From Bdellovibrionales bacterium (GTDB lineage: Bacteria; Bdellovibrionota; Bdellovibrionia; Bdellovibrionales; UBA1609), in contig OZ241877.1 in NCBI GenBank assembly GCA_965203095.1, positions 1 through 64,000 on the forward strand: a stretch of DNA of 64,000 nucleotides, given 5' to 3'. The notes beneath the pieces were generated by a model. It saw nothing but the letters and a program-made list of their open reading frames with translations, was not told the origin of the DNA and made no database searches. A program made the position numbers and the translations under genes. Below, piece after piece: positions 17,702 to 62,230 of this stretch. Numbering within the stretch: the stretch's first letter is position 1; every line of letters begins with the position of its first letter.

Positions 17702-17774
17702 TTTTTGCCCAAAGGCCATTTCATTTCGGGACGGCAATACCTTGAACCCTCATGAAACGCCCTTTGGGCAAAAA
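17702..17774 (+). mobile_element. Core-hairpin repeat element copy (outer ends decayed)
   Basis: Core ttcgggacggcaataccttgaaccctc (17725-17751) inside stem tttgcccaaagg..cctttgggcaaa. Confidence 0.85.
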
Positions 17775-17992
17775 TCATTAAAAAACCATTCCCTTAAAAC
17801 TCGTCATTATAAAAATGGAAGTCCTTATCCATTCAGATCGCTCCCCGCAAAAACAACCAACGGGAATCTTGCCCCCAGGGATCTCCGAGTCGCAGTTTCA
17901 AAACAATCCCCCCCCCTAAAAACGCTGTAAATTCAATAGTTTAAATCATTTTAAACACAAAAAAAACTTTTCTTTTAAACAAGGTTCATGGT

Positions 17993-18084
17993 GACTTAAG
18001 CTGGCTTTTATAGACTCAAGAAATCGTGACGAAATTAAGGCCAGCGGAGCATTGAACATAGCCTTGATTATCTGGGTGGATTGA
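17993..18084 (+). pseudogene. 3' remnant of a constant-tail family gene
   Basis: 18010-18084 reads IDSRNRDEIKASGALNIALIIWVD*, homologous to the ends of 18167 and 8991; no start codon. Confidence 0.7.
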
Positions 18085-18166
18085 GCTTTTGCCCCTTGTG
18101 TGAAAAATTTACAAAATGCTTTAAAAGACTTTATTTTCCCGGACAATCCTGCTATAACCAACCACA

Positions 18167-18637
18167 ATGAAAATACTATTAAGCCTTGTTCTTTTAATGA
18201 GCTTGCCGGCTTTTGCCAGCTCTCAATGCGGTGATGTCCCTCTTGCCCTGCAAGATTTGCTAATAGACTTGAGAGGGAAAAACTTGGAAGGGGAAAACTT
18301 GAGAAGGGCAGAGTTGTCACGGGCAGACTTGACAGAGGCAGTCTTAACAAGGGCAGACTTAACACGGGCAGACTTGGTTTTGGCGAACTTGACAAGGGCA
18401 GATTTGACAGAGGCAGTCTTGATAAAGGTAGACTTGAGTTTTGCAGACTTGAGAGGAGCAGATTTGAGAAGAGCGGACTTAAGTTTTGCAGACTTAAGCT
18501 GTTCAAAAAACTTAGAATTGGCAGACTTGAGAGAGGCGAACTTGAGCGGTGCTCTTATAGACTCAAAATATCGTGACATGATTATGAAAAGCGGAGCAAA
18601 GAACATAGGCGGAATTACCTGGTTCTTTGGGGATTAA
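18167..18637 (+). CDS. Secreted pentapeptide-repeat protein (constant-signal family)
   Basis: A(D/N)LxX repeats; signal MKILLSLVLLMSLPAFA. Confidence 0.9.
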   Translation: MKILLSLVLLMSLPAFASSQCGDVPLALQDLLIDLRGKNLEGENLRRAELSRADLTEAVLTRADLTRADLVLANLTRADLTEAVLIKVDLSFADLRGADLRRADLSFADLSCSKNLELADLREANLSGALIDSKYRDMIMKSGAKNIGGITWFFGD

Positions 18638-18677
18638 GCTCTAAAACCCTCTATTTTTCTCTCTAATCTCTATCTAT
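18632..18677 (+). repeat. Conserved 3' box, copy 2
   Basis: gattaagctctaaaaccctctatttttctctctaatctctatctat. Confidence 0.9.
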
Positions 18678-18747
18678 CCCCCAAAAAAAGCCCTCAGCAG
18701 GCAAAAAGCCTATTCTCGTTGATATTTGAAGCACTTTCAAAAAAAGC

Positions 18748-18776
18748 TTGACATTCCCGGCTAATGGCCATATAAT
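18748..18776 (+). promoter_or_regulatory. Consensus sigma70 promoter TTGACA-N17-TATAAT, leaderless geometry
   Basis: ATG at 18783 lies 6 nt after TATAAT, no SD. Confidence 0.85.
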
Positions 18777-18782
18777 GGCTTT

Positions 18783-19010
18783 ATGAAAGTTTTTACTCCA
18801 TTATTTCAAGCTGTTATTGCTTTCGTGGCTGTTTTGACGGGATTAGGGTTTGTCTTTAACCTTCTTTTAGCTCCGGTTAAAAGAGACATAGAAAAACTTG
18901 AGGCTGGACAGGCTAAACTTGAGGCTGGACAGGCTGAAATTAAACAGTTGTTTTATGAGTTTAAAAACCATTCTCATGATCAGCCAAAGCAAGCCAGCAA
19001 AAACAAATAG
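18783..19010 (+). CDS. TM + coiled-coil small protein
   Basis: Hydrophobic N-terminus, LEAGQAKLEAGQAEIKQ; 3' flank aaatagtctctttat shared with the 8661 copy. Confidence 0.8.
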   Translation: MKVFTPLFQAVIAFVAVLTGLGFVFNLLLAPVKRDIEKLEAGQAKLEAGQAEIKQLFYEFKNHSHDQPKQASKNK

Positions 19011-19400
19011 TCTCTTTATATCCTTAACCATCCCAGAAGACTTTAGGTCTTCTATCTCTATTCATAATCTTCGGGCCTGCAATGAAATAGAAAAAGAAAA
19101 CTACTCTTACTTAAAAGATCATTTTGTTTTGGAAGGAACTCAAACTGCCATCATTCCTTTTCTTATTGGAGCCGGAGGATCGCTTTTAGCTGCCGGAGGT
19201 ATTGGTTGCCTTATAGGAAACCGTATGAGATTAGACGGGGTGTTATTGACCGGAGTGTTAGGCATACCTTTAACTATATGGTGAGTGGTGCTCTTCCTTA
19301 TCCGTTTATGGTTATGCCAGTGTCTTTTGCATTAGGAGCTTTTGCCGGAGCCGTGATTTGCATGGCGGAAGATTTTGATATAATCCATTTTTTTGATTAA
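19011..19400 (+). pseudogene. Frameshifted Gly-rich membrane protein ending in the family 3' box
   Basis: Two overlapping hydrophobic ORFs join by a 1-nt shift at actatatggtg (~19278); ends IIHFFD then 3' box; no clear start or signal peptide. Confidence 0.5.
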
Positions 19401-19442
19401 GCCCCTCAGAACCCTCTATTTTTCTCTCTAATCTCTATCTAT
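19395..19442 (+). repeat. Conserved 3' box, copy 3
   Basis: gattaagcccctcagaaccctctatttttctctctaatctctatctat. Confidence 0.9.
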
Positions 19443-19668
19443 TCTTCCTCTTTTTTTAGACGACAGGCAGACGACAAACCCACACTGGCTCTAAGAGACA
19501 GCCCGCCAACCGCTCCGCAGAGGGCAGACGACAGGCAGACGACATAAACTGGAGTTTCGAGCAAAAGGAGGGGGCTATCTTCTGGTTTTTTTTCAATTTG
19601 TTTTCATTGTCTGTTCAATAGGTTTTTCTTCATTGCCCTAAAAAATATTTTTTGAGATATTTTAAATC

Positions 19669-19896
19669 ATGACATTACTATCCCGCTTGCCTAAAGGGCG
19701 AATGGCTTTAATTACAGGCTTTTCCGCCAATCAACACATTTTCCTCCGTTTTATGGAGATGGGCCTAGGGGCCAATGAGCGGATCCAAATGTTAGGCCAA
19801 CTGCCCTTTGGGGGCAATTTAGTTATTCTTTCCTATTATGGGAAATACACTTTAAGAAAAACAACGGCTCAGATGATTCAAGTCAAAGAGTTATAA
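19669..19896 (+). CDS. feoA: Ferrous iron transport protein A
   Basis: RFMEMGL..., PFGG, TLRK motifs; upstream of feoB. Confidence 0.85.
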   Translation: MTLLSRLPKGRMALITGFSANQHIFLRFMEMGLGANERIQMLGQLPFGGNLVILSYYGKYTLRKTTAQMIQVKEL

Positions 19897-20006
19897 GCCA
19901 TTACCCGCTGATAAGGAGGCTTATTCTCAAAGGGAAAAACCTCTTTCATAAGCCAACTCAGCAGGGGGCAATGGTTTCTCAGGCAGATCGCTTCGCGGTA
20001 AAAATT

Positions 20007-21893
20007 ATGAGCCAAAAAACAAAAAAATTTTTTCTTGTTGGCCCACCCAATAGTGGGAAAACCAGCCTTTTTAATTGGCTGACGGGTTTTCAAAATCCTG
20101 TTGTCAATTACCCAGGATCTACAGCCCTTTTTTCTGAAGGGAATATTTTAAAAAAATACCAACTGCCGGGAATAGTTGTAGATAGCCCCGGTTTTTACAG
20201 CCTATTCCCTCAATCAGAAAATGAACAACAGGTTCAAAAACTTCTTTTTAAAAATAAAGATCCGCGAATTTTAATTCTGACTTTAGATGTCAGCAAGTTG
20301 GAGATTCAGCTCCCTTTGTTTTTTCAACTTAAAGAAGCAGGTTTCTCCCCTGTTTTGGCTTTAACTATGTGGGATATAAAGCCATCCCCTATAAATTTAT
20401 CCCGCCTTAAAAAGCTCTTAAAGACCCCAGTGATTCCCATCAAAGGTTTGACGGGAGAGGGGGTGATGGATCTGATAGAAATCCTCAAAAACTGGATTCC
20501 GGAACAAAAACCTAAACCTATAAAGGCTTGGGATCTCAACAAGTTTAAAGAGATTTCCCGCCAGACCCAAAATTTGATTTCCCCATCTTCTAAAAAAGAT
20601 ATGGAAAAAGAAAAAAAACAAAGTTTTTTTGCTGACCACCGATGGGACAAGCTCTTTCTTCATCCTCAAAAAGGCTTGCTTTTATTTGCCGGGATTATGT
20701 TGGGGCTGTTCTCCTCCATTTTCTGGCTGGCCCAACCCTTTATGGAGTTTATAGATAAAGCCTTTTCCCTCTTAATAGATCAAAGCTTTAAGAGTTTGGC
20801 AATTTATCCTCAAATAGCGGATTTTGTATCTCATGGCCTGTTGGCCAGTTTAGCTGGAGTCTTGATTTTTGTCCCGCAAATTTTTATTCTTTTTGCCGGC
20901 ATTTCCCTTTTAGAGGACACAGGATATTTGGCCCGTGCTGTGGCCCTTATGGATGGTCCTTTTTCAAAAATAGGTTTAAGTGGCCGATCCTTTGTCCCTT
21001 TTTTGTCCGGCTATGCCTGTGCTGTTCCCTCTGTTTTGCTGGCCAGAAACCTTGATAGCCAAAAAGAGAGATGGATGAATTTTTTAGCCATTCCTTTTAT
21101 GACTTGTTCTGCCCGCCTCCCCGTCTATATTCTGCTCCTCAGTTTTTTGTTTTATAGTCAATCCGCCTTTTTGCCAGCTCTCACTTTGGGCGGGATTTAT
21201 ATGGCCAGCTTTTTTTTAGGAATCTCAGTCGTATGGCTTTTAAATCTCTTTTTTAAAAAACAAACAAAAGAGGCTTTTTTGTTGGATCTCCCCTTATATC
21301 GCCCTCCAATTTTAAAGAAAATTTTGCGGAATGCCTACATGCAGAGCCGACATTATATTGTTAAAGCCGGGCCAACTATTTTTTTTGTCGCCTTAGTGAT
21401 TTGGCTATTATGTCATTTCCCCGGACAGAGTGATTTGCCCCCTGCTGAAAGAATCCAACAGAGTTATGCGGGGCAAATCGGCCAATGGATAGAGCCAGCC
21501 TTTAAAGCTATGGGAGTGGATTGGAGAGTGGGGACAGCCCTAATAGCGGCCTTTGCGGCAAGAGAGGTTTTTGTTCCCGCTTTGGCTTTGGTTTTTAGCC
21601 TGGCACCAGAAGGCAATGCCCCTTTAAAACAATCCCTTATAGAAAGCATGCAAAAGGCTCAGCATGCGGATGGTTCTTTGATTTTTACATTCAGCAGTGT
21701 GACCGCATTGGTGGTTTTTTTTATATTTTCCCTTCAGTGCCTTTCCACAACGGCAGTTGTTTATAAAGAGAGCGGTTCCTGGAGGCTGGCCCTGTTTCAG
21801 TTTTTGGCTTTAAATGGAGGAGCTTATCTTATGGCGGTTTGCACTTATCAGGGCCTGGAATGGCTTTTGTCCAACCCATTTTTCGGCTCATAA
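20007..21893 (+). CDS. feoB: Ferrous iron transport protein B
   Basis: GPPNSGKT, NYPGST, DSPG, LEDTGYLAR, PFMTCSARLPVY, AAREVFV. Confidence 0.95.
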   Translation: MSQKTKKFFLVGPPNSGKTSLFNWLTGFQNPVVNYPGSTALFSEGNILKKYQLPGIVVDSPGFYSLFPQSENEQQVQKLLFKNKDPRILILTLDVSKLEIQLPLFFQLKEAGFSPVLALTMWDIKPSPINLSRLKKLLKTPVIPIKGLTGEGVMDLIEILKNWIPEQKPKPIKAWDLNKFKEISRQTQNLISPSSKKDMEKEKKQSFFADHRWDKLFLHPQKGLLLFAGIMLGLFSSIFWLAQPFMEFIDKAFSLLIDQSFKSLAIYPQIADFVSHGLLASLAGVLIFVPQIFILFAGISLLEDTGYLARAVALMDGPFSKIGLSGRSFVPFLSGYACAVPSVLLARNLDSQKERWMNFLAIPFMTCSARLPVYILLLSFLFYSQSAFLPALTLGGIYMASFFLGISVVWLLNLFFKKQTKEAFLLDLPLYRPPILKKILRNAYMQSRHYIVKAGPTIFFVALVIWLLCHFPGQSDLPPAERIQQSYAGQIGQWIEPAFKAMGVDWRVGTALIAAFAAREVFVPALALVFSLAPEGNAPLKQSLIESMQKAQHADGSLIFTFSSVTALVVFFIFSLQCLSTTAVVYKESGSWRLALFQFLALNGGAYLMAVCTYQGLEWLLSNPFFGS

Positions 21894-22012
21894 GCATTTT
21901 GATTTTCTCAATACCGGAAGGCTTTTTGCTTTCCCTACCAAAAAATCTACCCCCTCTACTATAAGACCAAGCCAAATCATAAAAAAATGAGGGTCAATTT
22001 TGCGGGAAAAAC

Positions 22013-22378
22013 TTATTTTGCTCGCTTAATCGGATTTTGAAAATTATTTTTTAGATCGATTAACATCTGTTTTATTTCAGCTTGGCCAGCCTCTAAATTA
22101 TCCATTCTTTTCTCAATTTTATCCACTTTCATCTCAATTTTATCCATTCTTATCTCAATCTTAGTTATTCTTTTATCAATAGGGTCTATTTTTGCATCCA
22201 AAAGAACATAAACCAGTCCAAACAGAACGGCCAAAAATCCAATGATAAAAGCCCCAGCTGAGAACAATATGGAAAAAGCTTTTACTGTTTCCGCACTCAT
22301 TCCCATACTCACTCCTTTAGCCTTATTATTAGCCATTCCCAATTGTGCATTTGTGGCCGGGTTTATTGTTTCAGACAT
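22013..22378 (-). CDS. TM + coiled-coil small protein
   Basis: MSETINPAT start, TM helix, DKIE heptads, LEAGQAEIKQ; RBS aaggag. Confidence 0.8.
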   Translation of the reverse strand: MSETINPATNAQLGMANNKAKGVSMGMSAETVKAFSILFSAGAFIIGFLAVLFGLVYVLLDAKIDPIDKRITKIEIRMDKIEMKVDKIEKRMDNLEAGQAEIKQMLIDLKNNFQNPIKRAK

Positions 22379-22475
22379 ATCGACTCCTTAATGGTTTTGA
22401 GCTTATTATACCCACAGTCACTTTGGGGGGCAACATAAAAAGTGAGTTTATGGATAGGTTCATGGATATTACTTA

Positions 22476-22650
22476 GTTGTCCGTGAAAAACCTTTGTTTT
22501 TTAACTTTTTTTGTCCAAAGGACCATTCCATTTCGGGACGGCAATACCTTGGACCATCACCGGACGGCCTTTAGGCAAAAGTGATTGAAAAGTCTGCCCC
22601 TGTAAAAGCAGAGAATGAGAAGGTCTTACTGAGACTTTTTCACGGACGAC
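22476..22650 (+). mobile_element. MITE-like core-hairpin element (175 bp)
   Basis: TIRs gttgtccgtgaaaaa / tttttcacggacgac; flanks tactta / tattta; core at 22532-22558. Confidence 0.9.
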
Positions 22651-22827
22651 TATTTAAAAACCTTGAAAATTATAAAAATCCCTATCTGATGTGGATTTTT
22701 GCGGGCTTTTTTTATCAATCCTGTCCAAAAAATGAAAAAAATCCCTTTTTATCACTTTTTTTTTGCAAAAGCTCAACAGATATGATATAAAAACCTCTCA
22801 ATACTTAAAATAAAAAAGGAGTGAATT

Positions 22828-23319
22828 ATGGATTTATTGAAAGTGGGCGATCGGGTGGTGTATCCTGGTCATGGTGTGGGCCAGGTGACTTCTATTGAAG
22901 ACAAAAACATTATGGGGAGCCGGCTGACTTTTTACTCTATGGAAATTATGGAGTCAGGGACTAAAATCATGGTGCCTAAAAACCGTTTAAAAAATGCAGG
23001 AGTTCGCCCTGTAGCCTCTAAAAAACAGGCTCAAGAAGTGATGGGTTTTATCAATGAGTTGAAAGAGGGGAATAAAAATTATTATTCCAATGGGAAAAAT
23101 TGGCAAAAAAGGCAACAGTCTTATATGGATAAAATTAAAACAGGATCCATTTATGAAATAGCCCAAGTGATATGCGATCTCAACCAAATCAAAAAAGCCA
23201 AAGAGCTAAGTTATGGAGAAAAACGAATGATGGACAAAGCCAAAAACATGCTTTACTCTGAATTTTCGCTCACAATGGATAAGAAGGAGCTAAAAGGCTT
23301 ATCTAACCAAAGGATTTGA
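22828..23319 (+). CDS. carD: CarD family transcriptional regulator
   Basis: VGDRVVYPGHGVG, IMVP, GVRPV, KELSYGEK. Confidence 0.92.
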   Translation: MDLLKVGDRVVYPGHGVGQVTSIEDKNIMGSRLTFYSMEIMESGTKIMVPKNRLKNAGVRPVASKKQAQEVMGFINELKEGNKNYYSNGKNWQKRQQSYMDKIKTGSIYEIAQVICDLNQIKKAKELSYGEKRMMDKAKNMLYSEFSLTMDKKELKGLSNQRI

Positions 23320-23415
23320 GAGCTTGCTTGGCTTGAGCAAAAAAAGGTTTCCCCACTGTTCAAATCTCAACTGTTCAAAAATGAGAAACAAACTAAAAAA
23401 CTTCAAGCATTAGCG

Positions 23416-24876
23416 GTGAAAATGCCTGTCCGTGTCCGATTTGCCCCCAGCCCTACAGGTTCTCTTCATGTTGGGGGGGCCAGAACAGCCCTCTTTAACT
23501 ATCTTTTTGCCAAAAAACACAAAGGCTCTTTTATCTTGAGAATTGAGGATACCGATCAAGATCGGCACCAAGAGGAATCCCTTAAACCTCTTTTAGAAAA
23601 CCTGAAATGGTTAGGGTTGAATTGGGATGAAGGCCCTTTTTTTAGCTCCTCTGGGATAGATTCTAAAGGGCCTTTAGGCCCTTACCGGCAAAGGGATCGC
23701 CTTTCCATTTACAAAGCCAAAGCCTTAGAGCTTATAGATAAGGGAAGGGCTTATTATTGTTTTATGACAGAGGAGGAAGAAGCCCAGAGGAAAGCGAGTG
23801 TTCTCAAGGGGAAAAGCCCCTGGAGAGCCTTTAGCCCGGACAGGGATTTGCCTTTAAAGTCTGCTAAGGAGAGGATCCAAAAAGGAGAGAAATTTTGTAT
23901 TCGTTTTAAAACTATTGCTCCCGATACACATTATATCATAGAGGATCTGTTGAGAGGGGAGATTCGCTACCCCAGTGATAGTTTAGGGGATTTTATCCTC
24001 ATCCGGACCGATGCTTTTCCCGTATATAACTTTTCCTGTGCTGTGGATGATGGCCTGATGCAAATAAGCCATGTTTTCCGGGGTGAAGAGCACCTGTCTA
24101 ATAGCTTAAAGCAAAAACTCATTCAACAAGCACTAAATCTCCCTCAGCCCAAAATAGGGCATCTTTCTATCATATTGGGAAAAGACAAAAAAAAACTGAG
24201 TAAAAGATCCGGAGCTGAAAACCTACAACATTATAAAAAAGAAGGCTACTTGCCCTCGGCCATAAATAATTTTTTAGCTCTCTTGGGTTGGAATCCTGGA
24301 ACGGATCAGGAGTTTTTTTCTATGGATGAACTCATCAAAAACTTTAGTGTGGCGGGGCTGAATTTGTCAGCGGCCCTTTTTGACCCTAATAAATTGCTTT
24401 GGTTAAACGAAAAGCACTTAAAAGCCCTTCCGGAATTAGAGTTAGCAGGACTCATAAAAGATTTTGTAAAAAAACCACTGCCAAAGGATCGCTCTTTAAA
24501 AAGTTTTATCTCTCCCCTACTCTCTAACTTTAAAACTTTAAAGTCATCGGCTAAAATCATAGAGCTTTTTTCAGATGATGGCTTTTCCATTCAAGAGTCG
24601 GCCCTTCAGGTTTTGCATTGGCCTACAAGCCCTAAACTCATTAAAAGTTGGTTAAAATTTTTGCAAGCTCTTTCAAAACCAAATATGAGCTGGGAGGATT
24701 TTAAAGTTTTTCAAAAATCTACTGGTTTGAAGGGGAAGGAGTTTTTTATGCCCCTTCGCTCCGCCTTAATAGGCCAGCCAGAGGGTTTAGAGCTTAAAAT
24801 CCTAATAAGCTTGCTCACAAAAGATCAAATGTTAAAAAGGGCAGAGCAAATTTTACAAAATCTCAAAAATCAATAA
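23416..24876 (+). CDS. gltX: Glutamate--tRNA ligase
   Basis: RFAPSPTG-HVGG, LRIEDTD, RGEEH, KLSKR. Confidence 0.95.
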   Translation: MKMPVRVRFAPSPTGSLHVGGARTALFNYLFAKKHKGSFILRIEDTDQDRHQEESLKPLLENLKWLGLNWDEGPFFSSSGIDSKGPLGPYRQRDRLSIYKAKALELIDKGRAYYCFMTEEEEAQRKASVLKGKSPWRAFSPDRDLPLKSAKERIQKGEKFCIRFKTIAPDTHYIIEDLLRGEIRYPSDSLGDFILIRTDAFPVYNFSCAVDDGLMQISHVFRGEEHLSNSLKQKLIQQALNLPQPKIGHLSIILGKDKKKLSKRSGAENLQHYKKEGYLPSAINNFLALLGWNPGTDQEFFSMDELIKNFSVAGLNLSAALFDPNKLLWLNEKHLKALPELELAGLIKDFVKKPLPKDRSLKSFISPLLSNFKTLKSSAKIIELFSDDGFSIQESALQVLHWPTSPKLIKSWLKFLQALSKPNMSWEDFKVFQKSTGLKGKEFFMPLRSALIGQPEGLELKILISLLTKDQMLKRAEQILQNLKNQ

Positions 24877-28793: not shown

Positions 28794-28796
28794 TCT

Positions 28797-42533: not shown

Positions 42534-42640
42534 GTCGTCCGTGAAAAAGCTGGAAGATTTTTTTGGCAAAGCTCGTCCCATTTTGTGGGAAAATATCTTG
42601 CCCCCTCCCTCACTGTCTGGTCTTTGAAAAAGCAAGGTGT
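42534..42640 (+). mobile_element. Degenerate core-hairpin element
   Basis: Left end gtcgtccgtgaaaaagc preceded by taagta; decayed core ttttgtgggaaaatatcttgccccctc. Confidence 0.7.
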
Positions 42641-44007: not shown

Positions 44008-44520
44008 TTAGTTTGCCTAAAGACCACCCCATTTTCTTTCGTGGGAAAAATACCTTGGACCATCACCGGGGGGCTTTGGGCAAAATGAAGATTAAAGGAT
44101 ATTTTCTCCTGAGCTTGTTAAAAAACACCTCTTTAAGTTTCTTTTTCCAAAGGCCATTTCATTTCGGGACGGCAATACCTTGGACCCTCATGAAATGGCC
44201 TTTGGAAAAAAGAAGGAAAAAGCCATTATTCTTTAGTTTTTTTGCTCAAAGATCCCCCCATTATCTGCTCTATTTTGCGGGAAAATACCTTGGCCCCTCA
44301 TGGAACAAAGTCATTAAGAGGATGCTTTTTTAGATCGATTTATTGTCTGTGAAAAACTTCTGTCTTTTATCGCATAAGCAAAAGCCAGCGGTGAGGGTCC
44401 AAGGTATTGCCGTCCCGAACAAGCTGGACTTTTGCTTATGCGATCTATTAAATGTAGACTTTTTCACAGAGGATTTTTTAGCAATTAGTAGGCTGGCTTT
44501 TGGGCAAAAGTGATTAAAAT
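44008..44520. mobile_element. Cluster of four core-hairpin elements (two intact, two decayed cores)
   Basis: Intact cores 44163-44189 (+) and 44393-44419 (-); decayed cores at ~44038 and ~44274; TIR-bounded unit 44342-44474. Confidence 0.85.
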
Positions 44521-49298: not shown

Positions 49299-49486
49299 GT
49301 TGTCCGTGAAAAAGCCTCAGTAAGTCCTTCTCATCCCCTGCTTTTACAGGCTCAGGCTTTTCAATGACTTTTGCCTAAAGGCCGTCCGGTGATGGTCCAA
49401 GGTATTGCCGTCCCGAAATGGGACGGACCTTTAGGCAAAGAAACTGAAGAATCCCCTGTGAATTATAGAGGTTTTTCACGAGCGAC
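49299..49486 (-). mobile_element. MITE-like core-hairpin element (188 bp)
   Basis: TIRs gttgtccgtgaaaaa / tttttcacgagcgac; exact 6-bp flanking duplication tattta; core 49391-49417. Confidence 0.93.
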
Positions 49487-51034: not shown

Positions 51035-51036
51035 TT

Positions 51037-51219: not shown

Positions 51220-51247
51220 ACTGCTGGTTTTTTACCTAAAACTATTT

Positions 51248-51799: not shown

Positions 51800-51855
51800 A
51801 AGGAAAACTCTATCTCACTTACAAGAGTTTTGTCAAACAGATCTTATGCTATATA

Positions 51856-51910
51856 ATCGCCTGTGAAAAGCCTCTGCGATCTATCAAATATAGACTTTTT
51901 CACGGATGAT
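51856..51910. mobile_element. 55-bp coreless derivative of the MITE family
   Basis: Ends atcgcctgtgaaaa / tttttcacggatgat with exact tatata duplication on both sides. Confidence 0.8.
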
Positions 51911-51992
51911 TATATAGTTTGAGGACTTTTAGCTCAACTGGGCCGGTGCCAGCCGAAAAACTTTGTGAGCAAAACAGGCCAAAAAAGATTTT

Positions 51993-52694: not shown

Positions 52695-52861
52695 TAGTTC
52701 CACTCCTTAAAGGCCACTGGGGCTTATTTTTTCAAAAATTGTGAGCCTATCAGCCCTCTCACAAAAACTCTATCGGTTTATTGTCCTATAAAATAAATAG
52801 AATTTTGAATCAGTTGATTAAAACAGGCATAAAGGCTGGCTTTAGGCAAAAAAACTAAAGC

Positions 52862-53290: not shown

Positions 53291-53457
53291 AACCCCCCCC
53301 TTCCCAACGGAAAAAATAGATCGTCCCCTCTGAAAAACTTGCCTAAAAGCCCGCATGTGTCAAGCCTTAAAAAAATCTTTAACAGGTTTTGCGAAATGGC
53401 TCAAAAATGATTCTGTCAAAAAAATCATGAACAGGACAGGAATAACTGTTTATGTGC

Positions 53458-53540
53458 TTTTGCCCAAAGCCACAGCATGAGGGTCCAAGGTATTGCCGTC
53501 CCGAAATGCTGTGGCCTTTGAGCAAAGAAACTAAAGAACA
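53458..53540 (-). mobile_element. Core-hairpin element between the RsbW-like and STAS genes
   Basis: Core 53479-53505 inside stem tttgcccaaagccacagcat / atgctgtggcctttgagcaaa. Confidence 0.88.
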
Positions 53541-53587
53541 ATTTTTTGCACTTGACAAAAACAATTTTTTTGAATGAAGTATAAATT

Positions 53588-53968: not shown

Positions 53969-53978
53969 GGAGCGAGCT

Positions 53979-55031
53979 TTGGGCTTTTGTGAGTATATTT
54001 GGATAGACGGGGCCCAACCCACTCAAAAACTTCGCTCAAAGGCTCGATTCTTACATTTTAACAAAAATATGGAAAAAATTTCTTTAGAGGATTTCCCTCT
54101 ATGGGGTTTTGACGGTTCCTCCACATATCAGGCCAAGGGCCATAACTCCGATCTGATTTTAAAGCCAGTGAATTTTGTCCGGGACCCTTTGCGAGCGGGG
54201 GAAGGGCAGTTTTTAATCATCTGTGAGGTTTTAACCCCCTCTAACAAGCCCCATCCCACCAATACCAGAGCACGGTTGAGGCAGGTCCTCTCCCGCGGGG
54301 CAGATCGGGAAAAGCCCCTTTTTGGAGTGGAGCAGGAATACACCCTATTTAAAAACCGAACCCCTTTGGGCTGGCCGGACAAAGGCTACCCCGCCCCCCA
54401 AGGCCCTTTTTACTGCGGGGTAGGGGCGGATGAAGTTTTTGGAAGGGAGCTTGTGGAAAGGCATAGCCAGGCCTGTGTTCAAGCCAATATTATGATTTTT
54501 GGGATCAATGCGGAGGTCATGCCGGGCCAATGGGAATTCCAGATCGGTTATAGAGGGATTGAGGGGGAAAGTGCGGACCCTTTAAATGTAGGGGATCATA
54601 CATGGATAGCTCGCTGGCTTCTCTACCGGCTGGGGGAGGATTTGGGCATTACCGCCACCTTGGACCCTAAACCTGTCCGGGGGGACTGGAACGGTGCGGG
54701 CCAACACACTAACTTTTCTACAAAATCCCTTCGAAATCCTAAAACAGGGGCGGAAAGCATCAAAAAATATTTAGAAAGGCTTTCCAAAAAACACAAAGAG
54801 CATATTGCCGTCTATGGCCACAGGCTTTCAGAGCGACTGACAGGGCGACATGAGACCTGCCATATTGATGAGTTTCGCCATGGCGTGGCCGACCGAGGGG
54901 CCTCTATCCGAATCCCACTTCATGTCTCCAACAAAGGTTATGGCTATTTAGAAGACAGAAGGCCAGGGGCCAACGCCGATCCTTATGAAGTGGCGGAGAG
55001 GATCTTAAAAACCATCTGCGAAATTGAGTAA
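53979..55031 (+). CDS. Glutamine synthetase type II
   Basis: EYIWIDG, LRSK, WGFDGSST, PQGPFYCGVG, NAEVMPGQWEFQ, GDWNGAG, RLTGRHET, EDRRP; 350 aa. Confidence 0.95.
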   Translation: MGFCEYIWIDGAQPTQKLRSKARFLHFNKNMEKISLEDFPLWGFDGSSTYQAKGHNSDLILKPVNFVRDPLRAGEGQFLIICEVLTPSNKPHPTNTRARLRQVLSRGADREKPLFGVEQEYTLFKNRTPLGWPDKGYPAPQGPFYCGVGADEVFGRELVERHSQACVQANIMIFGINAEVMPGQWEFQIGYRGIEGESADPLNVGDHTWIARWLLYRLGEDLGITATLDPKPVRGDWNGAGQHTNFSTKSLRNPKTGAESIKKYLERLSKKHKEHIAVYGHRLSERLTGRHETCHIDEFRHGVADRGASIRIPLHVSNKGYGYLEDRRPGANADPYEVAERILKTICEIE

Positions 55032-55034
55032 AAC

Positions 55035-56471
55035 ATGAAAAACCCGGCCCAACTCTTCCAATCCTATAAAATAAAACCTCAGTTTTACGATGAGTTTTTT
55101 TCTTCTGAAAATAAAGCCCGCCCCTTAGCTCAAAACTTTATTCAAGAGTTTAATAACTTGCCTTTGCAGGACATTGAAAGGGCCCATTCATCCATCTCTC
55201 AGTTTTTTCAAACAGAGCTTTCCGCCTTTAATGTCCCAAAGGAAAGGGCCCTCTCTATGGACATCATCCCCTCCCTCCTCAATCAAAAAGATTGGGATCA
55301 TATAAAAAAAGGACTGAGTCAAAGGCTAAAGGCTCTAAACCTCTTTCTCAAAGACATTTATACTAAAGAACAAATTTTAAAAGAGGGCCTTGTGCCCAAA
55401 GATTTGGTTTATGAATCTCCACATTTTTTAAAAGAGATGAAGGGGGTCAAAATCCCCTTTGATATTTATATTCAAATATTGGGATCAAATATTGTTCGAA
55501 CTTCTGAAGGTTTTTTTGTGGGAGTGAGCCAGCCCAGCCCCCAAGGGAGTTTTTATTTAATACTGAGCCGGCGGGTGATGAAGCAAAAGTTCCCTCGCCT
55601 TTTCAGGAAGTGCAATGTTAAAAAAACCGATGGCTTAATTCCCTTTTTAAAATCCTTAAAATCACTTTCTGAAGAAGAAAAACCTTTTTCCGCCATTTTA
55701 AGCCCTGGCCCTTCCCACCCCCATTATTTTGAAATGAGTTGCCTCAGTAGACAAATGGGAATAGAGATGATCCAAAGTGCCGATCTAACCATCCACGAGG
55801 GAGGGCTTTATGTTAAAACCATTAAAAAGCTTAAAAAAATACATGTTGTATTTTGTCCCTTTGATATTTTTTACCCCCCTTTGGCCTTTCCGGATCATTT
55901 TGCCAAAGATATTCTTCAGCTTTTTTCCACTAACTATCCTGCAAGTATCACCCCAGTTCCTGGGGCCGGTGTGGCCTGTGACCGATCTATTTATAGCTAT
56001 ATCCCTAAAATCATACAGTATTATTTAAAAGAAGAAAGCCTTTTACCCAATATTCCCACTCAGCTTTGTCGCGAAAAAAAACATTTAGAACAAATTTTAC
56101 AAGATCTGCCAAAGTTAATTGTCAAACGCCTTACTGAATCAGAGAACTTTTTTATTGGGCCGAAATCCTCTAAAAAAGAGAGAGAGATTTTTAAGGAACA
56201 ACTTAAAGCCCATCCAAAAGATTTTATAGCCCAAACCCTTTTGCCTATTTCCACATCCCCTTGTTTTATTGATGGGGAAATAAAACCCCGGCATATATCT
56301 TTAAGAATGTTCACTTGGCTCAACCGTTTTTTTGAGGTGGGCACTGTTCCGGGGGGCTTTTGCCAAGCCTTTTCTGAGGAAGAAGATCTATTCTACCCCA
56401 CTCATTCTGCAGTGGCTTTAAAAGATCTGTGGCTTTTAAAAGAGGAGGATTATGCTTTCCCGCGTAGCTAA
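55035..56471 (+). CDS. Circularly permuted type 2 ATP-grasp homolog, catalytically degenerate
   Basis: FYDEF, GLSQRLKALNLFLKDIY, SPGP..YFE, GAGVACDRS, FIAQ..ISTSP, PRHISLR; lacks the EDN and GSGG motifs. Confidence 0.85.
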   Translation: MKNPAQLFQSYKIKPQFYDEFFSSENKARPLAQNFIQEFNNLPLQDIERAHSSISQFFQTELSAFNVPKERALSMDIIPSLLNQKDWDHIKKGLSQRLKALNLFLKDIYTKEQILKEGLVPKDLVYESPHFLKEMKGVKIPFDIYIQILGSNIVRTSEGFFVGVSQPSPQGSFYLILSRRVMKQKFPRLFRKCNVKKTDGLIPFLKSLKSLSEEEKPFSAILSPGPSHPHYFEMSCLSRQMGIEMIQSADLTIHEGGLYVKTIKKLKKIHVVFCPFDIFYPPLAFPDHFAKDILQLFSTNYPASITPVPGAGVACDRSIYSYIPKIIQYYLKEESLLPNIPTQLCREKKHLEQILQDLPKLIVKRLTESENFFIGPKSSKKEREIFKEQLKAHPKDFIAQTLLPISTSPCFIDGEIKPRHISLRMFTWLNRFFEVGTVPGGFCQAFSEEEDLFYPTHSAVALKDLWLLKEEDYAFPRS

Positions 56472-57456
56472 TAATTTTTACTGGATGGGGCGATATATAG
56501 AAAGGGCCTCTACCATAGCTCGGCTTTTGTTGGTTCAAATCAGTGAAATGCCGGAAGACTCTTCTGATTTTGTCTCCGCCAGCTGGAAAGGGATTTTTGA
56601 TAGCTTTAAATTATCGGATTTAAAGAAAAGTTTTTTGCCGGAACCAAAAGGTGAAAAATCAGTTTCAGATGATTTTTTGTTGGCAGACGCTTACACCCTG
56701 ACAGACTATTTTACTTTTGAAACTCATCACCCAGTATCCATCTATAGTTGCTTTAAATGGGCCAGGGAAAATGCCATTCAAAATCAAGATATAGCCAGAT
56801 CTATTGGCCTCTCCATTCATAAAACCTATTTGAAATTGGAAAAAACAAGCTTAAAAGAGCTTTGGCCGGACAAAATGGCGGATTTTTATAAAAACATTTT
56901 AGAGTTTAGCTGGCTCTTCCATGGCCTCATAAAAGATCGGCTCTACCAAGGCTTAGCCTTCCACTTCATCCACTTGGGCATTTACTTAGAGAGATTGCAA
57001 AATCAAGCCTCTATTTTTGAAAATCATATTCGCCTAATGATACAGCATAAAGAAGAAGAAGAGGATGTCATCAGCCTTCTCTTAAGGCTCTCTGCTTTAG
57101 AAAGCTATCGCCAGATTCACTCTTTAGATCTCACACTCCCTAAAGTGGCTGATTTTTTAATTTATGCCCAATTCCCGCACTCCTTAAAGTTTGCTGAAGA
57201 GCAAATAAGAAAATCCCTTTCCTCCATTGAGGGAATAGAAGATCCCAATGCCCTACCCTTTCCCTCCTTAAACAAAATAGAGAGCCAGCTGAGAGCCTCT
57301 TATGTGGGACAAGCCTTGCCTAAATTTTTAAATTCTTTTTATAAAAATGCAATAGCTGTAGGAGAGTCCATTAGCAAAATTTATTTTCATCAAGAAAAGA
57401 TAGGGGAAGGGCCACAAGAACAGTTCCCTCATCTTTTTTCGAAAAAAAAGAAATAA
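56452..57456 (+). CDS. Alpha-E domain protein (DUF403)
   Basis: MLSRVA..YWMGRYIERA, ARENA, LGIYLER, FPHSL. Confidence 0.9.
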   Translation: MLSRVANNFYWMGRYIERASTIARLLLVQISEMPEDSSDFVSASWKGIFDSFKLSDLKKSFLPEPKGEKSVSDDFLLADAYTLTDYFTFETHHPVSIYSCFKWARENAIQNQDIARSIGLSIHKTYLKLEKTSLKELWPDKMADFYKNILEFSWLFHGLIKDRLYQGLAFHFIHLGIYLERLQNQASIFENHIRLMIQHKEEEEDVISLLLRLSALESYRQIHSLDLTLPKVADFLIYAQFPHSLKFAEEQIRKSLSSIEGIEDPNALPFPSLNKIESQLRASYVGQALPKFLNSFYKNAIAVGESISKIYFHQEKIGEGPQEQFPHLFSKKKK

Positions 57457-57474
57457 TGCCCCATTAAAAAAGCT

Positions 57475-59181
57475 TTATCGAATTTTAGGGAACAAAGGGA
57501 TAGAAGGGCATTTTATAGCCCAATCAAAGGGGAAACTGCCCCAAGCGGTATGTTTAAGGCTCAGCTTTTGCCCATCATAGTTTAGCTTAGTGGTAGGGTT
57601 TAGAGCGGGATTTATCTCCGGCAAGGAGGGGACCATTCCCAACTGAGATAAAAGCTCTGTCATTTTCCCCGGCATAATCGGGAAAAGAAATAGAGCACAA
57701 ATCCTTAAAGCCTCTATAACAGTCCAAAGAACTTGTCCGGCTCGCTTTTTCCCGCTTTGTGATTTTAATAACTTCCAAGGGGCCTCTCGCTCTAAATACC
57801 TGTTAAGCTCTGTCAAAAGGCCAAACAGATCCTCTAAGGCTTGAGAAAGCTCAAATTTCTCTATCCGCTCTTTCCAGCCTGCTTTTGTTTTTAAATTCCC
57901 AAAAAAAAGCTCTTCCGTCATCTGTTTGATCTTTTGATCTGCTATCTCATCCCTTGGGACTTTCCCCTCAAAATGCTTTTCTATCAAACGGGAGACTCGG
58001 CTAAAAATATTGCCTAAATTGTCCGACAGATCCTCATTGCATTTTTGGATCATTAATTCTTTAGAAATAGCTGAATCTTTTCCTAAAAAAATGTTCTTAG
58101 CTAAAAAATACCTCAAGCCATCCACCCCTAAAATATCCGATAACTCCAAAGGATCCAGTTTATCCCCTTGAGATTTGCTCATCTTTTTATCCGATCGGTT
58201 CAAAAGCCAGCCATGGGCAAAAATACTTTTGGGCAATTTTAAATCCAAAGCCATCAAAAGGCAGGGCCAATACACCGCATGAGTCATTAAAATATCTTTG
58301 CCAATAAGATGAATGGCTCCAGCTCTATTCCAAAAATTTTCAAAATAAGTTTTATCTTCCTCCTTACCAATATAATCCTCCTTTACAAGGTAGGCCCCAT
58401 AACCCAAACCGGTAATATAATTGAGAAGGGCATCCACCCAAACATAAACTACAGAGCTTTTATCAAAACTCAGCTCTATCCCCCACTGGACTCTTGACTT
58501 GGGGCGACTCACACAAAGATCTTTCAGAGGCTTTTTTAAAAAGGCTTTAATTTCATTTTGCCTCTCTATTGGCCGGATAAATTGGGGATGAGTTTCTAAA
58601 TGACGAATCAAAAGATCTTGATATTTTGACATTTTAAAAAACCAAGCCTTTTCCTGTAGGGGGATAACCTCTTTTCCCGATGGGGATTTTCCATCTATTA
58701 AATCTTTTTCGGTATAAAAAATCTCTTCGCTCACACAATACCAGCCCTTGTATTGGCTTAAATAAATGTCTCCCTTATCTTTTATTTTTTGAAGAAGGCT
58801 TTGAACCGTTTGACTGTGATTAGGAGGAGTGCCCCCCTCTTTTAGTTGTTGATATTTATGACTTGTGTAAAAAAAAGATTGATCCTCCTCACCAATGGCA
58901 TTGTATTCAATGTTCAGTTTTTGCCAAACGGTTTTAAAATGCTCTCTCATCTCTGCACAGTGGAGTTCCGGCTCTACGCCTCTGGCCTTTGCGGCCTGCT
59001 CGCATTTTTGCCCATGCTCGTCCGTTCCCGTTAAAAAAAAAGTCTCATAATCTAAAAGTTTGTGATAGCGGTTCAAAATATCAGCAATAATTGTGCTGTA
59101 AGCTGTCCCTAAGTGAGGCCGATCGTTTACATAATAAAGAGGGGTGCTGATATAAAAAAAATGGGAACAGCTCATCCGCAT
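57475..59181 (-). CDS. metG: Methionine--tRNA ligase
   Basis: TPLYYVN..HLG, LTGTDEHGQK, YVWVDAL, IGKDI, KMSKS. Confidence 0.95.
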   Translation of the reverse strand: MRMSCSHFFYISTPLYYVNDRPHLGTAYSTIIADILNRYHKLLDYETFFLTGTDEHGQKCEQAAKARGVEPELHCAEMREHFKTVWQKLNIEYNAIGEEDQSFFYTSHKYQQLKEGGTPPNHSQTVQSLLQKIKDKGDIYLSQYKGWYCVSEEIFYTEKDLIDGKSPSGKEVIPLQEKAWFFKMSKYQDLLIRHLETHPQFIRPIERQNEIKAFLKKPLKDLCVSRPKSRVQWGIELSFDKSSVVYVWVDALLNYITGLGYGAYLVKEDYIGKEEDKTYFENFWNRAGAIHLIGKDILMTHAVYWPCLLMALDLKLPKSIFAHGWLLNRSDKKMSKSQGDKLDPLELSDILGVDGLRYFLAKNIFLGKDSAISKELMIQKCNEDLSDNLGNIFSRVSRLIEKHFEGKVPRDEIADQKIKQMTEELFFGNLKTKAGWKERIEKFELSQALEDLFGLLTELNRYLEREAPWKLLKSQSGKKRAGQVLWTVIEALRICALFLFPIMPGKMTELLSQLGMVPSLPEINPALNPTTKLNYDGQKLSLKHTAWGSFPFDWAIKCPSIPLFPKIR

Positions 59182-59186
59182 AGTCC

Positions 59187-61688
59187 TCAGTTTTTTTGCT
59201 TGAGGGAGATAGAAAACTCTGCTTTTACTTGTTGAATGGCTTTTTCTAAAAGAGTTTGTATCTTTTCCTCTGTCCAGGATTGGCCTTGAGGCTCTAATCG
59301 CACTCTAAACGAAAGGGATCTCTCTTTTTTCTGCTCATAAATGTCAAAAAGCTGAACTTCCACCGGTAAAGCTTTCAGGCTTTTTTTTATCCCCTTTCTC
59401 AGATCTTCTGCAGGAAGAGAGGGGGGGACTACAAAAGAGAGATCTCTTTCTACAGAGGGGAGATCAGAAAAAGGCTTAAAGCGGGAGGCTTTTTTATTTT
59501 GGAATAAAAAAGTCTCACAAAAGATCTCAGCTAAAGCCACATCTACAGGGATTTTATATTTTTTCCGCAAGAGGGGGTGCAAACTAAACAAAAAACCGGA
59601 AGGCTGGTTTTTAAAAATAAGGCTCACACTCTGTTGGGGATGAAGGAAGGGAATATTCTTTTTTAAAGGTTGATAAATCACTTTAATTTGAAAAGCCTCA
59701 AAAATAAGATCTAAAAGAGATTTGAGTTGATATAAATTATTGGCCTTTTTTTGACTCCAAATATCCACTGGATCGCCCCAAAGGGCCAAGCCCAAGTGCA
59801 ACTGTTGCCGGTAGCTTTTCCCTTCCTGATAAAATACAGGAGACAGTTCAAAAATCCGGCCCTGTTTATTATTATGGCGAAAATTGTTAACTACATTTTT
59901 AAACAGGTCAGGCACCAACAAAGGCTTCATTAAGGACAACTGCTGGCTCAAAGGGTTATTTATTGAAAAAAAACTCCGGCGGAGTTCCGTCTTTTTAAAA
60001 TCAGTTAAACCCATAATATCTTCTAAAACAGAGCTGTCTTTTAAAAACTCTTTATAATAGAGGGGATCACAAAAACTATAATTGATGGCCTCTAAGCATC
60101 CTTTTCCGATTAAAAAATTTCGCAGTTTCTGATGGTTCCGGTAAGGGGCCTCAGGCATAAATGTAGGAATGGGTGGGGGCATACTCTCTATTATTTTGTG
60201 ATAGCCTTGGAGACGAGCCAATTCCTCAATCAGATCCTCTTTAATTTTTAAATCTCTCCGGTAAGAGGGGGCTAAAACTTTAAAGCGGGTTTTGGCTGTG
60301 GGAAGATTTGCACTACCGCTTTTAATTTCTTTTTGAAGTTTTTGCCCACTTTGAGTTGAGCTATCCTTTTGGATTTGGCAAGCCAACCTCTTCAGGTCAT
60401 TTTGAAATTGAGACAAGGGCATGGCCTGCCCTAAGCGATCTTCCACATCTTCTAAACTGATTTCTATTTCTGCCAGTGGGGCCATTTCGTGTTGAATATC
60501 ATAAAAATCCTTAGACAACTCCCCCCCCGCCTCTTTTTGAATAAGGAAACAGGCCCAATCCAAAGCCTCCCGGACTGCTAAAGGATCTATACCTCTACTA
60601 AAACGATAAGACGAATCGGTCTCCAAAGCATATCTTCGGGCTGTTTTCCTTATGGGGGCCGGAGCAAAAAAAGCCGACTCTATAAAAACATCTTTTGTCT
60701 CTTTTTTAATGCCAGAATTTATCCCGCCAATAATTCCGGCCAAAGCCAAAATTTTATCTTTGTCTCTAATCACTATCTCCTCACCAGTCAAAACCCGTTC
60801 GCATTCATCTAAGGCTAAAAATTTTTCGTCTTTTTTAGACCAGTCCACAGTTAAACTTTGAATGGTGTTAAAATCAAAAGTGTGCAAAGGTTGGCCTTGG
60901 TCCCATAAAACAAAATTAGCGACATCCACCACATTGTTAATGGGCTTTAAGCCCAAAGATTTTAACTTTTGTTTGAGCCTATCTGAAGACTCCCCCACCG
61001 CTACCCCTTTGATTAAACGGCCAGAGTAGCGAGGGCAGGCTAAGGGGGCTTTAACCTGAACAGGTATCCTCTTTTTGACAGAAAGAGATTTGTCCTCAAT
61101 AAGAGAAAACTTAGGGACAGAAAAAGATAAGGAGAACAAACAGGCAATCTCCCTGGCCAAACCTCTATGGCTCAAACAGTCGGATCGGTTGGGCGGGATA
61201 GTGATCTCAAAAATCACATCCTTTAAAGCCATCCTATCAGAAAAGCTTTGGCCTAAAAGGGCTTTTTCAGGCAAAACCCATATCCCATCCTCTTCATCTG
61301 GGAAAGCCAACTCCGATCGGCTAAGGAGCATGCCTTCGCTTTCTATCCCTCGGATACGGGATTTTTTAATTTTTAAGCCTCCTGCAAGCACCGCTCCCGG
61401 CAAGGCTAAAATCACCTTATCCCCCACTTTGTAATTTTTGGCCCCACAAACAACAGTATAATTTTTAAGCCCGTCAAACACTTTACAAAGGCTCAGACGA
61501 TCAGCCTGAGGATGTTGTTCCGATGACTGAATTTCCGTTATAAAAATATTTTTAAATAGCTCTCTTTGATCTTCAAAAGAGTCCACCTCTAAGCCCGATA
61601 GAGTTAAGGCCGTTCCTAATTTTTCTGGCTTATCAAAAAAAGCCTTAGTCTCTATAAAATCACTTATCCAATTGAGAGAAAATTTCAT
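59187..61688 (-). CDS. pheT: Phenylalanine--tRNA ligase beta subunit
   Basis: MKFSLNWI, HPQADRL, VVCGAKN, PNRSDC, INNVVD, EDLIEELAR, ERDLSF. Confidence 0.95.
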   Translation of the reverse strand: MKFSLNWISDFIETKAFFDKPEKLGTALTLSGLEVDSFEDQRELFKNIFITEIQSSEQHPQADRLSLCKVFDGLKNYTVVCGAKNYKVGDKVILALPGAVLAGGLKIKKSRIRGIESEGMLLSRSELAFPDEEDGIWVLPEKALLGQSFSDRMALKDVIFEITIPPNRSDCLSHRGLAREIACLFSLSFSVPKFSLIEDKSLSVKKRIPVQVKAPLACPRYSGRLIKGVAVGESSDRLKQKLKSLGLKPINNVVDVANFVLWDQGQPLHTFDFNTIQSLTVDWSKKDEKFLALDECERVLTGEEIVIRDKDKILALAGIIGGINSGIKKETKDVFIESAFFAPAPIRKTARRYALETDSSYRFSRGIDPLAVREALDWACFLIQKEAGGELSKDFYDIQHEMAPLAEIEISLEDVEDRLGQAMPLSQFQNDLKRLACQIQKDSSTQSGQKLQKEIKSGSANLPTAKTRFKVLAPSYRRDLKIKEDLIEELARLQGYHKIIESMPPPIPTFMPEAPYRNHQKLRNFLIGKGCLEAINYSFCDPLYYKEFLKDSSVLEDIMGLTDFKKTELRRSFFSINNPLSQQLSLMKPLLVPDLFKNVVNNFRHNNKQGRIFELSPVFYQEGKSYRQQLHLGLALWGDPVDIWSQKKANNLYQLKSLLDLIFEAFQIKVIYQPLKKNIPFLHPQQSVSLIFKNQPSGFLFSLHPLLRKKYKIPVDVALAEIFCETFLFQNKKASRFKPFSDLPSVERDLSFVVPPSLPAEDLRKGIKKSLKALPVEVQLFDIYEQKKERSLSFRVRLEPQGQSWTEEKIQTLLEKAIQQVKAEFSISLKQKN

Positions 61689-61853
61689 AAAAACAGTATA
61701 ACCGGAACAAAGAGCCTTCTTCAAGCTCTTTTATTTTTGTGGGACTCTATACTTTTTCCATAAATTTTCCTTATTTATACTGATTTTGTTTGAAAATTCC
61801 TGCTTTCTCTACTCTGTTTTGACCGGAAATCTCAAATGTAATCAGTATAATTA

Positions 61854-62041
61854 GTCGTCCGTGAAAAAGCCTCAGTAAGTCCCTCTCATCCCCTGCTTTT
61901 ACAGGCTCAGACTTTTCAATCACTTTTGCCTAAAGGCCGTCCCATGAGGGTCCAAGGTATTGCCGTCCCGAAATGGGACGGACCTTTAGGCAAAGAAACT
62001 GAAGAATCCCCTGTGAATTATAGAGCTTTTTCACGGGCGAT
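61854..62041 (-). mobile_element. MITE-like core-hairpin element (188 bp, near-identical to 49299-49486)
   Basis: TIRs gtcgtccgtgaaaaa / tttttcacgggcgat; flanks taatta / taattt; core 61946-61972. Confidence 0.93.
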
Positions 62042-62080
62042 TAATTTAGTCGTTCTAAAAAAACTATCCTCCTAAATTTA

Positions 62081-62230
62081 GTGACTCATGAAAAAGTATC
62101 CTCTCAACTTCTTTTTTCCAAAGGCCATTTCATTCATGAGGGTCCAAGGTATTGCCGTCCCGAAATGGGATGGCCTTTGGAAAAAGAAACTAAAGAATAA
62201 GGCTTTCCAGAAGGATTTTTCACAAAAGAT
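62081..62230 (-). mobile_element. Second adjacent core-hairpin element
   Basis: Core 62138-62164 in stem ttttccaaaggccat / atggcctttggaaaa; decayed TIRs. Confidence 0.85.

Follow-up and report, generated by a model that had tools for sequence, protein, structure and literature searches.

An IS5-type MITE family carrying a conserved hairpin in a Bdellovibrionales bacterium, and its probable relation to TwoAYGGAY repeats

The first 64,000 nucleotides of contig OZ241877.1 (GenBank assembly GCA_965203095.1, forward strand; hereafter the window), from a Bdellovibrionales bacterium of the UBA1609 lineage, contain a dispersed family of hairpins which present a near-invariant 27-nt core on stems of changing sequence. 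We report that these copies are non-coding MITEs (miniature transposable elements with inverted repeats), and our favored explanation, to which we give a probability of roughly two in three, is that they belong to one IS5-family (NF033578) lineage which spreads a captured and reduced hairpin resembling TwoAYGGAY (RF01731). In this explanation an IS5 transposase would mobilize the MITE copies in trans, as is established for MITEs in general (PMC3733652); one IS5 clade would have captured the hairpin, which the MITEs of the clade then spread; folding back of the hairpin could turn a lone right end into a complete MITE, and crossovers within the shared core could swap halves between size classes. 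The MITE family is real, of a known kind and apparently so far undescribed; its conserved cargo is unusual and its parent has been identified.

Results

Distribution of the core

Eight copies of the core, each with 0 or 1 mismatch, are present in the window, exactly where and in the orientation in which the original prediction had placed them, and none of 100 shuffled sequences contained any match; the stems quoted in that prediction were likewise present. Of the three decayed copies that it had added, the one at 44008-44088 was recovered by R1, a covariance model built for the short form of the hairpin, and the one at 44260-44313 weakly so, whereas the copy near 42580 had no R1 match but keeps arm-like sequence behind a terminal repeat at 42534. 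With up to 3 mismatches allowed, 81 copies, 41 on the plus and 40 on the minus strand, were counted in the genome to which the window belongs (G000; 1.8 Mb, 90% complete). None of 40 sampled relatives had the exact form, and a looser pattern, with the core one base shorter, occurs 126 times in genome G104 and 26 times in G110, which is of another genus. This short core is present in three of 109 genomes of the family and, among 401 genomes of the phylum, in G000 only; R1, with 44 candidates scored per genome, matched nine of the 109 family genomes.

It should be noted that database records titled "Bdellovibrionales bacterium" contain the same ends in many copies, part of them together with the same core, and that these were excluded from our counts. 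The exact core had no match in the collection of genome contigs searched, where the pattern would miss the 26-nt variant, nor in the viral or metagenome contig collections searched, and a plasmid search gave no relevant match, its sole product being 95 bp from IS5 genes of Leptospira. Contigs of two sequencing runs, labeled sponge metagenome (X4) and marine metagenome (X8), cover MITE copies across window positions 44280-44466 with 2-12 differences, and in run X2 most of the depth at 44409 lacks one base, i.e., has the shorter core form, which points to other carriers in the same sample.

Terminal repeats, target duplications, and insertion sites

The copies fall into three classes of 133, 153, and 188 bp, each bounded by a 15-bp inverted repeat. 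When terminal repeats were sought within 140 nt of the core and with no more than 4 mismatches, 40 of the 81 G000 cores lay between two terminal repeats and 18 had one, chance matches being common at this tolerance. An exact 6-mer duplication flanks 19 of the 40 two-ended copies (two of the 19 are one duplicated locus), always in the form TANNTA and with seven different middles; a 2-bp duplication beside repeats ending in TA fits the same data. With a looser end pattern, 99 of 130 cores in the part of G104 that was read (1.2 of its 2.0 Mb) lay between two ends and 46 of them had exact duplications, 44 being TANNTA. The two terminal inverted repeats together with the TANNTA duplications identify the copies as MITEs, and the G000 cores without ends lie in mosaics with other repeats. 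The original prediction, which saw a constant middle on drifting stems, had described the family as the reverse of the MITE pattern; it overlooked the outer ends, which are terminal repeats of the IS5 type flanked by 6-bp duplications. A match to insertion sequence (IS) ends, which the prediction had named as grounds for its own refutation, is found for the shell. One window copy (core at 22532) is a composite of two classes that meet at the core, the 153-bp class supplying its left half and the 188-bp class its right half; it has unequal flanks (TACTTA and TATTTA) and the lowest R1 score of the undecayed copies. A shell at 51856-51910, read from its sequence, appears to be an internal deletion derivative. 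In unrelated bacteria the same IS5-type ends enclose other hairpin cargo, including NTS-like repetitive extragenic palindromic (REP) hairpins (L058, L068, L087, L102, L116, L117, L135, L138, and L141).

By a crude gene call, 71 of the 80 G000 copies scored are intergenic. Between co-directional genes 13 copies lie on the same and 17 on the opposite strand (p 0.58), the corresponding numbers in G104 being 36 and 37, and sites between convergent genes are not in excess (11 of 71 copies vs 64 of 501 in the background). Insertion looks blind to gene orientation. Intergenic position and very stable folds (z of -7 to -9) are what would be expected of terminators or mRNA-stabilizing hairpins kept by the host, but this strand neutrality and the ordinary share of convergent sites make such a role highly improbable.

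The parent element

The same ends bound elements of about 1.55-1.6 kb with an NF033578-type transposase in Nitrobacter (L039; 549 bits), in an alphaproteobacterium (L113; 528 bits) and in members of the family, where 20 of 109 genomes have an NF033578 match and four exceed the curated cut-off of 275 bits. Cognate transposases with the same ends are present in G105, G110, and G017, and in broken form in G104. Genome G105 holds the autonomous IS5 parent, which has the same ends and carries the hairpin between the transposase stop codon and the right end. There, six of 11 R1 matches begin exactly 65 nt after the NF033578 match and on the same strand, and the transposases beside hairpins score 467.6 and 460.6 bits. 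One locus (L302) is an intact 1.58-kb element with a 445-aa frame that terminates within the 5' hairpin arm and with its right end directly beyond the 3' arm; another full-length element (L349) has TATTTA on both sides and a transposase match in two pieces. Broken IS5 copies in G104 (L212, L418) have the hairpin in the same layout, and the 133-bp class, as seen at window positions 44342-44474, is the best match to the right end of the autonomous G105 element. We consider it very likely that a G105-type transposase acting in trans, now or earlier, moved the G000 copies and that G000 has since lost it.

The hairpin seems to mark one branch of the transposase family. Six database proteins of 78-95% identity share a C-terminal AKP peptide, which overlaps the hairpin arm, and in a tree of 34 rows, made from the first 25 hits plus two distant ones and seven loci, all eight AKP-ending rows fall inside one 100/99 clade of 10, the AKP label requiring one to three changes. 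R2, which finds the hairpin frame, had no match in five unrelated genomes with the same terminal repeat, and when metagenomes were searched with the end of the G104 transposase, two distant loci were recovered. Our copies resemble NF033578-type IS5 MITEs in being short and non-coding and in having terminal inverted repeats and target duplications. They differ in that one clade here has a conserved structured module over the transposase stop codon, which the distant IS5 loci L039, L113, L189, L190, and L191 lack (no R1 match), and in that at least one MITE, L346 of G105, is built of two right ends joined through the hairpin: its left 45 nt agree with the inverted right end of L302 at 45 of 45 positions, as against 17 of 45 for the IS5 left end.

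Structure of the core and the folding strand

The core had been described as a loop. It is in fact partly paired, and two of its pairs show compensatory changes: among 233 copies from G000, G104, and G110, pair 4 is G-C in 208 and A-T in nine, and pair 5 is G-C in 155, T-A in 37, and A-T in 33. On the folding strand the apex consists of a GA/GAA internal loop, a 3-bp helix, junction strands of 5 and 2 bases, and a variable top. The favored folding strand is the transposase-sense strand: over distinct arm pairs G.T outnumbers A.C on it by 39 to 16, 48 to 15, and 28 to 2 in the three genomes, and the RNA fold is more stable on it in 50 of 59, 97 of 101, and 24 of 24 cases. The idea that the core is displayed on a stem is borne out in so far as folding of one strand is favored, but the strand originally quoted, which is the opposite one, is probably not the strand that folds.

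In alignment A1 88.8% of the cells are paired, compared with 57.1% after shuffling and at most 47.7% after sliding, and for 24 rows from eight genomes the figure is 82.8%, compared with 57.7% and at most 63.5%; the rows were mostly preselected for pairing, which inflates these percentages, and the informative part is the many pair types per column. The GA/GAA loop on its long stem is invariant in A1 and near-invariant in a further alignment, A2, and non-canonical G.A and U.C pairs beside the core are kept in 27 of 38 A1 rows. In 25 representative stems the arms are 37% identical (42% when gapped) vs 88% for the core. Variable stems that stay complementary around a constrained core are supported, but not as the rule without exception that had been claimed, the copy at 22532 being a chimera and 46 of 75 genome copies reaching 13 of 16 paired positions in an ungapped register. 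Rather likely, in our judgment, the hairpin acts as a folded single strand in the transposase sense, and its apical motif is kept through putative recognition of its shape by a protein; for the folded strand RNA is somewhat favored over DNA.

Two catalytic readings of the apex were rejected. The UGAG..CGAA part of a hammerhead is present, but the CUGA turn is absent (judged against the hammerhead consensus) and there is no Rfam match; cleavage at an invariant GUA was dismissed on account of G107 copies without GUA. Rfam ribozymes and riboswitches gave generic hairpin matches only, far below the cut-off.

Variation of the stems and exchange between copies

Within subfamilies, 17 single-copy double-sided Watson-Crick changes were counted vs 18 single-copy one-sided changes. 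As independent point mutation would yield few doubles, template switching between the arms, a known process (PMC8604942), is their simplest source. Template switching cannot explain the G.T excess and the retained G.A and U.C pairs, which argue for selection on one folded strand. That the stems drift and stay paired by copying from arm to arm, with additional selection on the non-canonical pairs beside the core, has in our estimation slightly better than even chances. The constancy of the core itself probably derives partly from exchange between copies, as in the chimeras joined at the core and in a TGAT variant patch found in 10 of 75 G000 copies over different stem classes, and partly from selection on apical shape. 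A derivation of one arm as an inverted copy of the end of a host gene found no support, since the distance between free-standing copies and the nearest gene ends ranges from tens to hundreds of bases.

The same exchange would also be expected if the hairpin had no present function, core invariance being due to recent copying, horizontal transfer, and gene conversion, and template switching alone keeping the stems paired; the patchy spread, with three of 109 family genomes, and the lack of orientation bias are in keeping with this. We nevertheless regard absence of function as unlikely, given the compensatory changes within the core, the surplus of G.T pairs on one strand, seen in three genomes, and the non-canonical pairs which stay uncorrected. 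In addition, the frame is kept in eight genomes despite unrelated stems and different apical inserts, and the proteins of G000 and G104 are merely 46% identical (median).

Free-standing relatives and TwoAYGGAY

In G104 the top of the hairpin is modular, with several short forms or with one or two extra hairpins. R2 found the hairpin frame in eight of 15 genomes of the G104 genus and in two of 151 genomes of the order, including G533 of another family, and the copies examined in G099, G107, G109, G111, and G533 have the frame without IS5 ends. Some free-standing copies bear two hairpins with AYGGAY-type loops; two such loops are found in the related forms L312, L353, L405, and L408, and the two-loop consensus, from the same order, shares its 5' strand and its 3' ten bases with the window core. 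L312 scores 35.5 bits across the whole RF01731 model, the gathering cut-off of which is 43 bits, and a GGCC-loop sub-hairpin of the two-loop forms occurs 16 times in one Pseudomonas genome, where the three loci tested pass that cut-off.

TwoAYGGAY (RF01731; PMC2864571) is likewise a structured repeat that occupies intergenic sites in many copies and stands on a long basal stem, with tandem G.A pairs reported (PMC4333381), the positional match of these to our GA/GAA loop being judged by eye only. In contrast to TwoAYGGAY, the form seen in the window lacks any AYGGAY loop and lies between IS5 ends. The window has no gathering-level Rfam match, to RF01731 or any other family, and its sub-threshold matches are generic hairpins; the window element is not a member of RF01731. 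The hairpin probably predates its capture, as a reduced TwoAYGGAY-like member which lost both AYGGAY loops and kept the basal GA/GAA loop, the 3-bp helix, and the junction strands. TwoAYGGAY-like copies that stay below the cut-off and have basal stems of about 30-40 bp with almost perfect pairing were also noted in G001, G022, G042, G120, and G124 (L405-L412), the three G042 copies differing in their stems. A second hairpin family (L225 at G104:C1 137022 and about eight similar places) has a multibranch apex of about 155 nt and the same UGA/GAA loop, with no IS5 ends in the two copies read.

Sequestration of CsrA has been proposed for TwoAYGGAY (PMC4333381; bioRxiv 10.64898/2026.09.22.753630) and could be invoked here, since csrA is present in all five genomes tested, G000 included, and the long forms have ANGGA-type loops. 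Among the 233 short cores, however, the folding strand has ANGGA once and GGA twice; the opposite strand has GGA in 233 and ANGGA in 162, but the structural evidence disfavors it, and ANGGA is absent from both strands of the usual G000 core. We therefore think CsrA binding a very unlikely role. In G104 two hairpin copies are found at a distance of about 200 bp from csrA (G104:C1 366165-366741), which may be chance at such copy density.

Comparison with REP systems

Dispersed hairpins with compensatory stems, mosaic clusters, and recognition of one strand are also known from REPINs and from the CGTC/NTS REPs associated with RAYT or Ssn (PMC3116915, PMC3733652, PMC11893778). A REP-like unit that is independent and acts as single-stranded DNA, cut or moved by its own HUH enzyme (RAYT/TnpA) or by an Ssn-type nuclease and using the IS5 shell as a second carrier, would account for the free-standing copies, which occur in both orientations inside ATP-synthase and ribosomal-protein operons (genes recognized from sequence). 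NTS-like REP hairpins are indeed cargo of other IS5-type shells, and compensatory change is found in REPIN spacers too (PMC3116915). We judge this improbable all the same. REPINs and REPs conserve their ends and tag and vary in the middle, whereas our elements have IS5-type ends and duplications, and by eye, with no formal test, neither a GTAG nor a CGTC tag stands out at the stem foot. A RAYT or HUH gene, which the prediction had recommended looking for, was not found in G000 (no match to PF01797), the published SRM pattern matches none of 75 hairpins, the GIY-YIG proteins of G000 have 263-621 aa vs 94 aa for the Ssn type and their genes are not flanked by intact cores, and a gene family with cores consistently at its flanks in G000 as well as G104 was not found. 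As separate observations, 58 NTS-like pattern matches occur in G000, and a GIY-YIG family of 230-270 aa, whose members have a basic linker followed by a C-terminal domain, is present in one to five copies in each of five genomes tested (L177 and L184 in G000; L178, L182, and L186-L188 in G110).

Window features and other repeats

Table 1. Hairpin and MITE copies in the 64,000-nt window. Strand, where given, is the inferred folding strand of the hairpin; bits are R1 scores.
Feature	Positions	Strand	Evidence and remarks
Hairpin, core 17725-17751	17700-17776	-	77.2 bits; one possible terminal repeat near
175-bp chimeric MITE, core 22532-22558	22476-22650	-	48.9 bits; both terminal repeats
Terminal repeat (42534), then decayed arm and core	42534-42625 (end approximate)		Sequence; no R1 match
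Decayed hairpin, core with 7 mismatches	44008-44088	-	28.6 bits
Hairpin, perfect core 44163-44189	44138-44214	-	84.9 bits; z -8.7; no terminal repeat within 140 nt
Strongly decayed hairpin	44260-44313	-	16.4 bits; E 0.09
133-bp class MITE, core 44393-44419	44342-44474	+	Worn terminal repeats; z -9.3
188-bp class MITE, core 49391-49417 with TGAT variant	49299-49486	+	Exact TATTTA duplication
55-bp core-less shell	51856-51910		Two terminal repeats; TATATA on either side
Hairpin, perfect core 53479-53505	53455-53530	+	70.6 bits; no terminal repeat within 140 nt
188-bp class MITE, core 61946-61972	61854-62041	+	Flanks TAATTA and TAATTT
Older adjacent copy, core 62138-62164	62049-62230	+	68.4 bits; 4-nt insertion in one arm; ends worn with 4 mismatches each, so boundaries uncertain

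Other repeats in the window comprise 39-bp tandem repeats inside a PilQ-like gene (3937-4326), 15-bp and 21-bp coding repeats (sites at 18267-18545 and 14904-15048) and a 58-nt block downstream of several short genes (9320-9377, 18631-18688, and 19396-19453). Elsewhere in G000 a 1.92-kb element with a PF01609 transposase, which we take to be IS1634-like, has four copies (C1 175259-177179, 971122-973042, 1227586-1229518, and 1350952-1352884) bordered by direct repeats that measure 1370, 1161, about 3345, and 84 bp, one of which duplicated a MITE copy; long and variable duplications are known for the IS1634 family, although those above 1 kb seem unusual. A 1.14-kb element with a 338-aa frame, presumably IS630-like, is present in eight near-identical copies on C1 (e.g., 722682-723821), which indicates recent activity. 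Contig C2 (1-17191) is a 1.1-kb unit repeated head to tail about 15 times; its first 3.4 kb contain no open reading frame of 80 aa, and C2 is probably not part of this bacterium.

Discussion

Several observations weigh against the explanation of the family as MITEs of an IS5 lineage which spread a reduced TwoAYGGAY-like hairpin. As to the IS5 part, no NF033578 transposase was found in G000, the genome being 90% complete; for 23 of its 81 cores a terminal repeat is missing from the surrounding 140 nt; and a search for empty sites gave none among paralogous loci or in contigs from four sequencing runs, contigs being unable to show absence. Two transposases of the AKP clade lack the AKP ending, and for the database proteins P0001-P0006 the hairpin was deduced from the protein end and not seen. 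At 24 of 31 positions none of 71 G104 MITE ends matched either IS5 end of that genome, so that birth of a MITE by fold-back is shown once only, in L346. The link to TwoAYGGAY is strained by the fact that none of the 109 family genomes passes the RF01731 cut-off, five having sub-threshold matches of up to 42.3 bits; L353 reaches 21.9 bits, L328, L343, L355, L416, and L417 have no RF01731 match, and R3, a poor two-loop model with five pairs, gives a window copy 15.9 bits and an unrelated place 14.0. With regard to function, the strand counts are of non-independent events, the changes scored as single-copy may recur in copies within the unread 40% of G104, and the lack of any orientation bias relative to host genes gives no sign that the host makes use of an RNA.

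We found no description of an IS5 element or MITE with such a motif, subscription journals and ISfinder lying outside the search, and no relevant paper with TANNTA. The recent TwoAYGGAY preprint (Li et al., 2026, bioRxiv 10.64898/2026.09.22.753630) leaves the mechanism of mobility open, and its main text mentions neither IS5, MITE, and target site nor Bdellovibrio, although its supplements may bear on novelty. A more specific version of our explanation, which we offer as speculative and think possible though hardly probable, is that a structured RNA of the TwoAYGGAY family was adopted at the 3' end of the transposase message, where its apex, putatively bound by the transposase or by some host factor, would make the carrier more successful, and where its fold-back would complete a MITE.

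The shell of these elements is ordinary, the hairpin cargo less so. Stem covariation in repeat families can stem from arm-to-arm copying and not solely from selection on RNA structure, which calls for caution in its interpretation. The natural deletion series from two-loop TwoAYGGAY-like forms to an apex of 26-27 nt shows which part is conserved once the proposed CsrA sites are gone, and an intact IS5 element with the hairpin is a ready assay system for what conserves such hairpins and for how TwoAYGGAY-type repeats multiply. The carriage of a hairpin that looks related to TwoAYGGAY by IS5 MITEs illustrates one route by which RNA-like repeats can move about genomes. If the more specific version of our explanation is true, the minimal 27-nt core would be the functional base of TwoAYGGAY-type repeats, separate from the Csr-binding loops, and transposition in an IS5 shell would be a concrete route for the expansion in TwoAYGGAY copy number, so far unexplained.

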